In this document: positions 13,918-14,084 of the stretch, in pieces
Position numbering within the stretch: the first letter of the stretch is position 1
How the letters are laid out: the number at the start of each line of letters is the position of its first letter
Assembly (NCBI RefSeq): GCF_001677475.2
Contig: NZ_CP015229.1
Length of the DNA: 64,000 nt
Source: Escherichia coli
GTDB lineage: Bacteria > Pseudomonadota > Gammaproteobacteria > Enterobacterales > Enterobacteriaceae
Strand: one strand, 5' to 3'
Translations under genes and position numbers: made by a program
The notes under the pieces: model-generated
The model's database searches: none
The model's input: only the letters and a program-made list of their open reading frames with translations
Told to the model about the DNA's origin: nothing

Positions 13918-14084
13918 CTTGTTGTAAGCCGGATCGGAGGCAGCGTCTTCTGGTTGCGAAAAAATCATACATCCGGCTGGTCAGCAACTGTAGTTGTTGA
14001 TGTGACAGAGCCATTTCCCATGATAGTGTCCATTACAATGATGGACACTATTTCCCCGGAACCTGAGTTCACCGCACAGGCGTT

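Follow-up and report, generated by a model that had tools for sequence, protein, structure and literature searches.

IS10 and IS50 are reportedly protected from outside activation by fold-back inhibition of transposase translation, as Davis, Simons and Kleckner are said to have described in 1985. A second kind of structure that bears on the present case is the REP-type 3' stem-loop that protects mRNAs once Rho has terminated transcription, a stable hairpin without U-tract located tens of nt past a stop codon. Exploring a 64,000-nt stretch of the Escherichia coli contig NZ_CP015229.1 (hereafter the window), we examined a perfect palindrome located between the converging genes dadX and a leucine-rich repeat (LRR) gene, and we conclude with high confidence, from sequence comparison, that the locus carries the fossil left end of an IS66-family insertion sequence (IS) and that the palindrome is the conserved subterminal stem-loop of that element. 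With the ISCro1-related elements of the IS66 family the locus shares the terminus GTAAGCG, a left end of ~90 nt that is 76-81% identical, and palindrome arms that are identical and placed at the same distance from the tip; it differs from them in consisting of ~90 bp only, with neither tnp genes nor right end nor a detectable 8-bp duplication. The locus is a fossil and not an intact element, and its biology is ordinary. What the living element would share with IS10 and IS50 is a structure of the element's end that lies over the transposase initiation region and concerns transcripts read in from outside, seen here in silico only; whereas in IS10 and IS50 the terminal repeat pairs with the ribosome-binding site, here a local perfect hairpin and an outer helix are involved, both known from prediction. 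The palindrome resembles REP-type stem-loops in its stability, the missing U-tract and the distance from the stop codon, but unlike REP elements it does not have a REP sequence, is single-copy and IS-derived, and none of the mapped 3' ends coincides with it. In the literature on dadX/cvrA, ISCro1 and IS679/IS66 we found no description of the palindrome or of the element.

The first-pass annotation of the window had reported a perfect 11-bp inverted repeat about 35 bp past the LRR stop codon, and its coordinates, arms and spacer all proved correct. The arms at 14023-14033 (ATAGTGTCCAT) and 14041-14051 (ATGGACACTAT) are 100% complementary and are separated by the 7-nt spacer TACAATG. The repeat lies 33 nt past the LRR stop and 105 nt downstream of dadX, within the 167-nt spacer that separates dadX from the LRR open reading frame (Table 1). 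Repeats of such size are rare: the window holds three perfect inverted repeats, compared with a mean of 0.12 expected from 60 first-order Markov simulations (arms of >=11 nt, loops of 3-10 nt). The other two with arms of >=11 nt are at 39932-39957 and 42380-42407. One of these, AAAATCCACGC-AATT-GCGTGGATTTT, resembles a bidirectional terminator, and an identical sequence has a Term-seq 3' end at MG1655 1256636(-); the third repeat of the window is TGACCAGTCAG-TTTGCG-CTGACTGGTCA. Searching for other copies of the dadX-proximal palindrome yielded a single one in the window, even with one mismatch allowed, and a 39-nt query found a median of one place per E. coli genome. Folding of the RNA predicted a hairpin of -19.4 kcal/mol (z -5.3) on the plus strand, where it can be extended to 14 pairs, and of -17.9 kcal/mol (z -3.9) on the minus (LRR) strand. 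On the minus strand the palindrome is followed by CAUGGGAAAUGG, and on the plus strand by UUCCCC, which together with the end of the stem reads UAUUUCCCC. Neither strand has the features of an intrinsic terminator: there is no U-tract on the LRR strand, the dadX strand has UAUUU only, and the palindrome was unflagged in a terminator scan of the window, in agreement with the earlier remark that it is not an obvious intrinsic terminator. An Rfam 15 scan of 13700-14400 gave chance-level eukaryotic matches only, none of them at the palindrome.

Table 1. Features of the dadX-cvrA region in the window. Assignments to the IS66 family are by homology.
Feature	Position	Strand	Remarks
dadX	12847-13917	+	converges on the LRR gene
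REP-like hairpin AGCCGGAT...ATCCGGCT after dadX	13927-13978	+	ancestral; outside the IS remnant; left limit of the islet
Inserted islet	13979-16163		from the ancestral hairpin to the cvrA stop codon
Probable IS66-family left-end remnant, ISCro1-related	14014-14101	-	tip at 14101; blastn homology to intact left ends
Palindrome, 11-nt arms, 7-nt loop	14023-14051	- (former IS sense strand)	IS nt 51-79 from the tip
Terminal inverted repeat, IRL	14074-14101	-	GTAAGCGTTTTATGTAGAACGCCTGTGC; aligns with the IRLs of 16 intact elements
LRR open reading frame, 488 aa from the first ATG	14085-15551	-	stop 14085-14087; weak Pfam LRR_4 match
IS1414 (partial) piece (MG1655 annotation)	16022-16121 (MG1655 1240188-1240289)		cvrA-side end of the islet

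To place the palindrome in the history of the region, we compared the dadX-cvrA interval among complete E. coli genomes. The 251 bp around the palindrome are present in 4,386 of 5,426 genomes, including K-12 and O157:H7, both of which are devoid of the LRR gene; ~812 genomes retain most of this gene and ~3,400 have the palindrome without it. About 1,125 genomes match the window up to 13923 and resume at 16164, which leaves a compact spacer of ~66 nt with one REP-like hairpin. The same compact order of dadX, hairpin and cvrA is found in E. albertii, in the representative of a second Escherichia species, in Citrobacter and in Enterobacter, indicating that the compact state is ancestral, that an islet (about 13979 to 16163) was inserted into it and that K-12-like genomes arose from the islet by deletion. 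The REP-like hairpin that follows dadX (MG1655 1239959-1240010) is homologous to the single hairpin of compact E. coli, of E. albertii and of L007, with ~21 extra loop nt in the window relative to the compact type. Beyond this hairpin the islet consists of ~26-35 nt of unassigned origin, the IS66 remnant, the LRR gene, its upstream region and the IS1414 remnant. The palindrome had been placed near the dadX-side junction of the islet, which is roughly right, as the left boundary at ~13979 is 44 nt away.

At least four states of the region exist in E. coli, i.e. compact, LRR islet, K-12-type deletion and O157-type deletion. In K-12 the palindrome is followed by ~75 nt of the LRR 3' end, an inverted IS1414 piece and cvrA; window positions 14159-16021 are missing, whereas O157 is missing 14197-16058, a different deletion. 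The palindrome of K-12 is explained by its being a deletion derivative of the islet, and K-12-like genomes cannot serve as an empty-site reference. The first-pass annotation, which took K-12-like genomes as the empty site, had proposed that a palindrome present in the uninterrupted dadX-cvrA region of strains lacking the LRR gene would be backbone, e.g. a REP-like element. The palindrome is indeed there without the LRR gene, but K-12 is not an empty site; the compact spacers of the ~1,125 E. coli genomes, E. albertii, Citrobacter and Enterobacter all lack the palindrome, and it occupies one place per genome, so the backbone conclusion was wrong. Relative to the window the IS1414 piece is inverted in K-12, and an imperfect inverted repeat of 12 nt borders it (AGCCAGAGCCTG / CAGGCTCAGGCT). 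K-12 lost the LRR gene by a deletion that ends exactly at this piece, suggesting IS-mediated inversion/deletion. The small-protein gene ymgM starts within the IS1414 piece, and cvrA is called a pseudogene with missing C-terminus by PGAP in the compact-type and O157-type genomes examined as well as in two LRR-positive strains (L088 and L094).

Searching plasmids by blastn with window 13960-14400 revealed that 14014-14117 is similar to the left ends of IS66-family elements, with 76-81% identity and E values down to 1e-13. The matches fall on plasmids of Pantoea, Serratia, Klebsiella, Edwardsiella and Enterobacter, where the annotation is IS66-like element accessory protein TnpA, and two of the matched loci are complete elements of ~2.7 kb with tnpA, tnpB and the IS66-family transposase gene; Pfam domains of the related elements are HTH_Tnp_1, TnpB_IS66 (PF05717) and DDE_Tnp_IS66. 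A phage collection gave no match. In the IS sense, which is the minus strand of the window, the homology ends at the terminus GTAAGCG, beyond which the flanks are unrelated in every element, and no homology past 14101 into the LRR gene was seen in unrelated contexts. At the other side clear homology reaches ~14014 and weak similarity ~14005, leaving a fuzzy inner boundary (14005-14022). The IRLs of the 16 intact elements start with GTAA(G/C/A)CG, and over IS nt 1-50 the remnant is identical at 38-39 of 50 positions to the Serratia and Symbiopectobacterium elements. We consider it very probable from these alignments that 14014-14101 is an IS66-family remnant; the closest relatives found (Serratia, Symbiopectobacterium and Pantoea) are ~20% diverged, and the assignment is to the group and not to one parent IS.

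Little of the element is left. Of tnpA there is weak similarity to the first few codons, and tnpB, tnpC and the right end are missing. We found no other IS-derived DNA in 13918-14013, no right terminal inverted repeat (IRR) nearby, and, in 13918-14030, no second copy of the tip-flanking GTTTCATT that would make an 8-bp target-site duplication. The missing IRR and duplication are as expected after internal or adjacent deletion. All twelve E. coli alleles examined have this remnant in common, indicating that the truncation is old. A GTAAGCC at 13924 was considered as a second IS end, as of a MITE-like element, and rejected: it aligns with the ancestral REP-like hairpin and not with IS66 right ends. 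The earlier suggestion of a recombination or insertion scar came closest to this outcome in that the palindrome lies within an IS66-family remnant; it is neither the junction itself nor a recombination site. The MG1655 equivalent of the remnant is ~1240046-1240133, adjoining the annotated IS1414 fragment. NC_000913.3 has no feature there and annotates the IS1414 piece only, so that the IS66-family remnant is an addition to dadX-cvrA. The remnant spot repeatedly attracts insertion sequences. In strain VL40 (L004) an ISSso6 of the IS110 family is inserted within the IS66 terminal-repeat remnant, at the equivalent of window ~14098, and in an O145:H28 strain (L094) an IS3-family element stands in place of the sequence downstream of the LRR gene.

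The palindrome was then followed in 16 intact or near-intact relatives, both plasmid and chromosomal. The plasmid copies include a very common E. coli/Shigella/Salmonella element that PGAP labels ISCro1 family; chromosomal copies were found via TnpA homologues of 51-100% identity with the Pfam domains HTH_23 and HTH_Tnp_1. The TnpA search of viral contigs returned near-identical copies from one genome only, useless for covariation. The distance between the tip and the start of the motif [A/G]TGTCC is exactly 53 nt in 16 of 16 elements, as in the window. In the intact elements the palindrome spans IS nt 51 to ~80, and the ATG or GTG of tnpA follows 3-5 nt after the 3' arm. The right ends carry no copy of it. 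The window arms are identical to those of six elements at 22 of 22 positions, while the adjacent 50 nt agree at 38-39 positions at best; IS nt 27-34 are saturated with changes, unlike the arms. The loop is mostly a T-run and varies from 7 to 11 nt, with fixed arms. At the level of sequence these alignments show the palindrome to be a conserved, position-fixed and left-end-specific component of the IS that abuts the start of tnpA. In the alignment 96% of the hairpin cells are paired, with no variation in seven of the 11 pairs. Another pair is G-C in 6, A-U in 6, G-U in 2 and A-C in 3 sequences, the A-C mismatch being that of the ISCro1-like subgroup on the sense strand; covariation is thus weak, limited to one pair, and its score is attained by 47 of 500 shuffles. 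The signal in the arms is one of conservation more than of covariation, a pattern that would suit a protein-binding site just as well.

RNAalifold recovered the hairpin and predicted in addition an outer helix around the start codon, between UCCGG (IS nt 36-40) and CCGGA (tnpA codons 3-5). Each of the 16 intact elements preserves the outer helix, five of them by way of a G-U pair; the window remnant has lost it. An RNA of the Serratia left end that begins at the tip is predicted to fold with -50.9 kcal/mol (z -5.4), whereas one that starts in the loop is unstructured (z 0.3). There is no convincing Shine-Dalgarno sequence, UGGA at 9-10 nt before the tnpA start being the only candidate. Scans of three intact IS left ends found no conserved sigma-70 promoter: three of four runs were negative, and the one weak match, which has its -10 box in the 5' arm, is not conserved. 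On the E. coli plasmid NZ_CP027547.1 (L097 3346-3430) a second, different IS66-family element adjoins the ISCro1-like one; it has a palindrome of its own, CCATCTAT/ATAGATGG, directly before the tnpA ATG and shares the motif ATGGACAC. The arrangement is a hint that hairpins next to tnpA could be a general trait of the IS66 family.

The LRR open reading frame crosses the IS tip, reading ...ATG AAA C/GT AAG CGT TTT ATG TAG in minus frame 2 (...TMK/RKRFM and stop, the slash marking the tip), with its stop codon inside the IRL. As it runs into the tip, its last five codons (RKRFM) and the TAG stop are IS-derived, and the gene may therefore be C-terminally truncated. PGAP calls a protein of 478-480 aa in other strains. 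Homologues occur in E. coli/Shigella only, the next relatives being IpaH/YopM-type LRR proteins of 31-33% identity. The alleles are unusually polymorphic, with DNA identity of 88-94% and a length of 437-488 aa owing to changes in repeat number, and the length variation involves the ENLQ repeats and the coiled-coil tail. The course of events that we propose is that an IS66-family element inserted into the LRR gene or at its 3' end, with the tip at 14101, and that everything past ~nt 90 was later lost from it, i.e. tnpA, tnpB and the DDE transposase gene together with the right end. What is left of the IS now provides the LRR open reading frame with its last five codons, its stop and its 3' flank.

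In the living element the palindrome would form a stem-loop in the leader RNA of tnpA, burying the ribosome-binding region, and the outer UCCGG/CCGGA helix would enclose the tnpA start codon. The structure would keep translation of tnpA-tnpB-tnpC low, above all on transcripts read in from outside. A start of transcription from the weak promoter match, with the -10 box in the 5' arm, would fit this fold-back idea. We lean slightly towards an RNA stem-loop over a protein site in duplex DNA for the living IS, since a loop of 7-11 nt between fixed arms favours a stem-loop over the half-sites of a rigid dimer; that it serves specifically for translational fold-back control we propose tentatively, at somewhat lower confidence. 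Binding of duplex DNA by a protein of the IS, either the HTH protein TnpA or the transposase, at an operator over the tnpA start or at a left-end-specific transpososome site, seems a less likely though serious competitor, under which the window copy would still be a fossil. TnpA has the domains for it (HTH_23 and HTH_Tnp_1), the palindrome keeps a constant distance from the tip, there is no change in seven of 11 pairs and in most of the arm sequence although the TnpA proteins are only 51-100% identical and nt 27-34 are saturated, and a change from G-C to A-T is equally expected of co-evolving symmetric half-sites. Yet the half-site spacing varies by 4 bp, also in the multi-copy, presumably active elements of P. 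stewartii (9 nt), which a rigid dimer would not tolerate, and the right end has no copy of the palindrome. The hairpin might also act on the strand antisense to tnpA, the plus strand of the window and the direction of dadX, where together with a U-run (UAUUUUCCC or UAUUUUUGU) it would be an intrinsic terminator that ends an RNA over the tnpA start, similar to RNA-OUT of IS10, or that stops outgoing transcription. Most elements have kept the A-rich run (GGGAAAATA, ACAAAAATA) that precedes the 5' arm and that gives a U-run directly after the antisense stem, and the plus-strand hairpin of the window has 14 pairs and -19.4 kcal/mol. We nevertheless regard this role as improbable: the terminator scan was negative in the window and in three intact elements, several elements have UGUCAC or UGUCUC in place of the U-run, the first 250-300 nt of tnpA contain no conserved antisense promoter, and MG1655 Term-seq has no plus-strand 3' end at 1240084-1240099.

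Explanations that start from the host rather than from the IS were weighed in the same way. A host protein-binding operator had also been suggested, and we found no evidence for one. A role of the palindrome as terminator or 3'-end element of dadAX would be in keeping with its location 105 nt beyond dadX in the same direction of transcription and with the short U-run that follows. Term-seq of MG1655, however, lists an orphan plus-strand 3' end at 1240019/1240020 and no 3' end on either strand in 1240021-1240199 (Adams et al. 2021, PMC7815308). Relative to the listed end, the REP-like hairpin stops 10 nt upstream and the palindrome (MG1655 1240055-1240083) begins 35 nt downstream, so it is the REP-like hairpin that probably marks the 3' end of the dadAX mRNA. 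Given that no Term-seq 3' end falls at the palindrome, it is not the dadAX terminator. As dadX moreover does without the palindrome in ~1,125 E. coli genomes and all outgroups, any dadAX 3'-end role is very improbable. Equally hard to credit, and in our view the least credible, is a backbone (REP-like) repeat, a lox/dif-like recombinase core site or a chance palindrome. The 11-7-11 layout does resemble tyrosine-recombinase core sites, and the palindrome is present in K-12-like genomes without LRR gene. Against these readings, it is single-copy per E. coli chromosome, absent from the ancestral spacers and embedded in IS66 homology; the spacer ranges over 7-11 nt among homologues and is not fixed at 6-8 bp; neither a partner site nor a recombinase is nearby; and the chance expectation is 0.12 per window. 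The palindrome is not known to have sequence similarity to dif. A further host reading, compatible with a fossil and in line with the RNA-stability hairpin offered in the first-pass annotation, is that the host co-opted the hairpin to block 3' exonucleases at the 3' end of the LRR mRNA after Rho-dependent termination and thereby to stabilise this mRNA, which we consider unlikely. It is the first stable hairpin past the LRR stop, 33 nt downstream and with -17.9 kcal/mol on the LRR strand. The sole arm variant in E. coli, ATAGTGCCCAT (T to C on the plus strand; three carriers, two of them with an intact LRR gene), leaves the position paired, as G-U, on the LRR strand but mismatched, as C-A, on the plus strand, and in a small sample variable sites fall on 3 of 7 loop positions compared with 1 of 22 arm positions. 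The arms are, on the other hand, no more conserved within E. coli than the ~5% divergence of the flanks predicts, a comparison of low power in which 1 of 22 arm sites varies against ~8% of flank sites, and the ~3,400 genomes that keep the palindrome without the LRR gene are what neutral persistence predicts.

Returning to the reading of the palindrome as an IS66-family fossil, the loss of tnpA at this locus leaves it a relic without dedicated function, which at most may happen to serve the LRR mRNA as the first stable hairpin of its 3' UTR. For the annotation of E. coli the value is mostly housekeeping, i.e. a conspicuous palindrome now has an explanation. A bolder reading, to which we give a low probability, is that an undescribed hairpin module, a leader stem-loop at a constant 50 nt from the tip, extends across the whole ISCro1-related branch of the IS66 family, where it would either gate tnpA translation or terminate an antisense RNA, and that the E. 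coli fossil was exapted as the stop and protective 3' hairpin of a truncated, effector-like LRR gene. For the family itself, the strongly conserved and apparently undescribed left-end stem-loop that abuts tnpA in ISCro1-type elements is simple to test, and these elements are very common on the plasmids of E. coli, Shigella and Salmonella.
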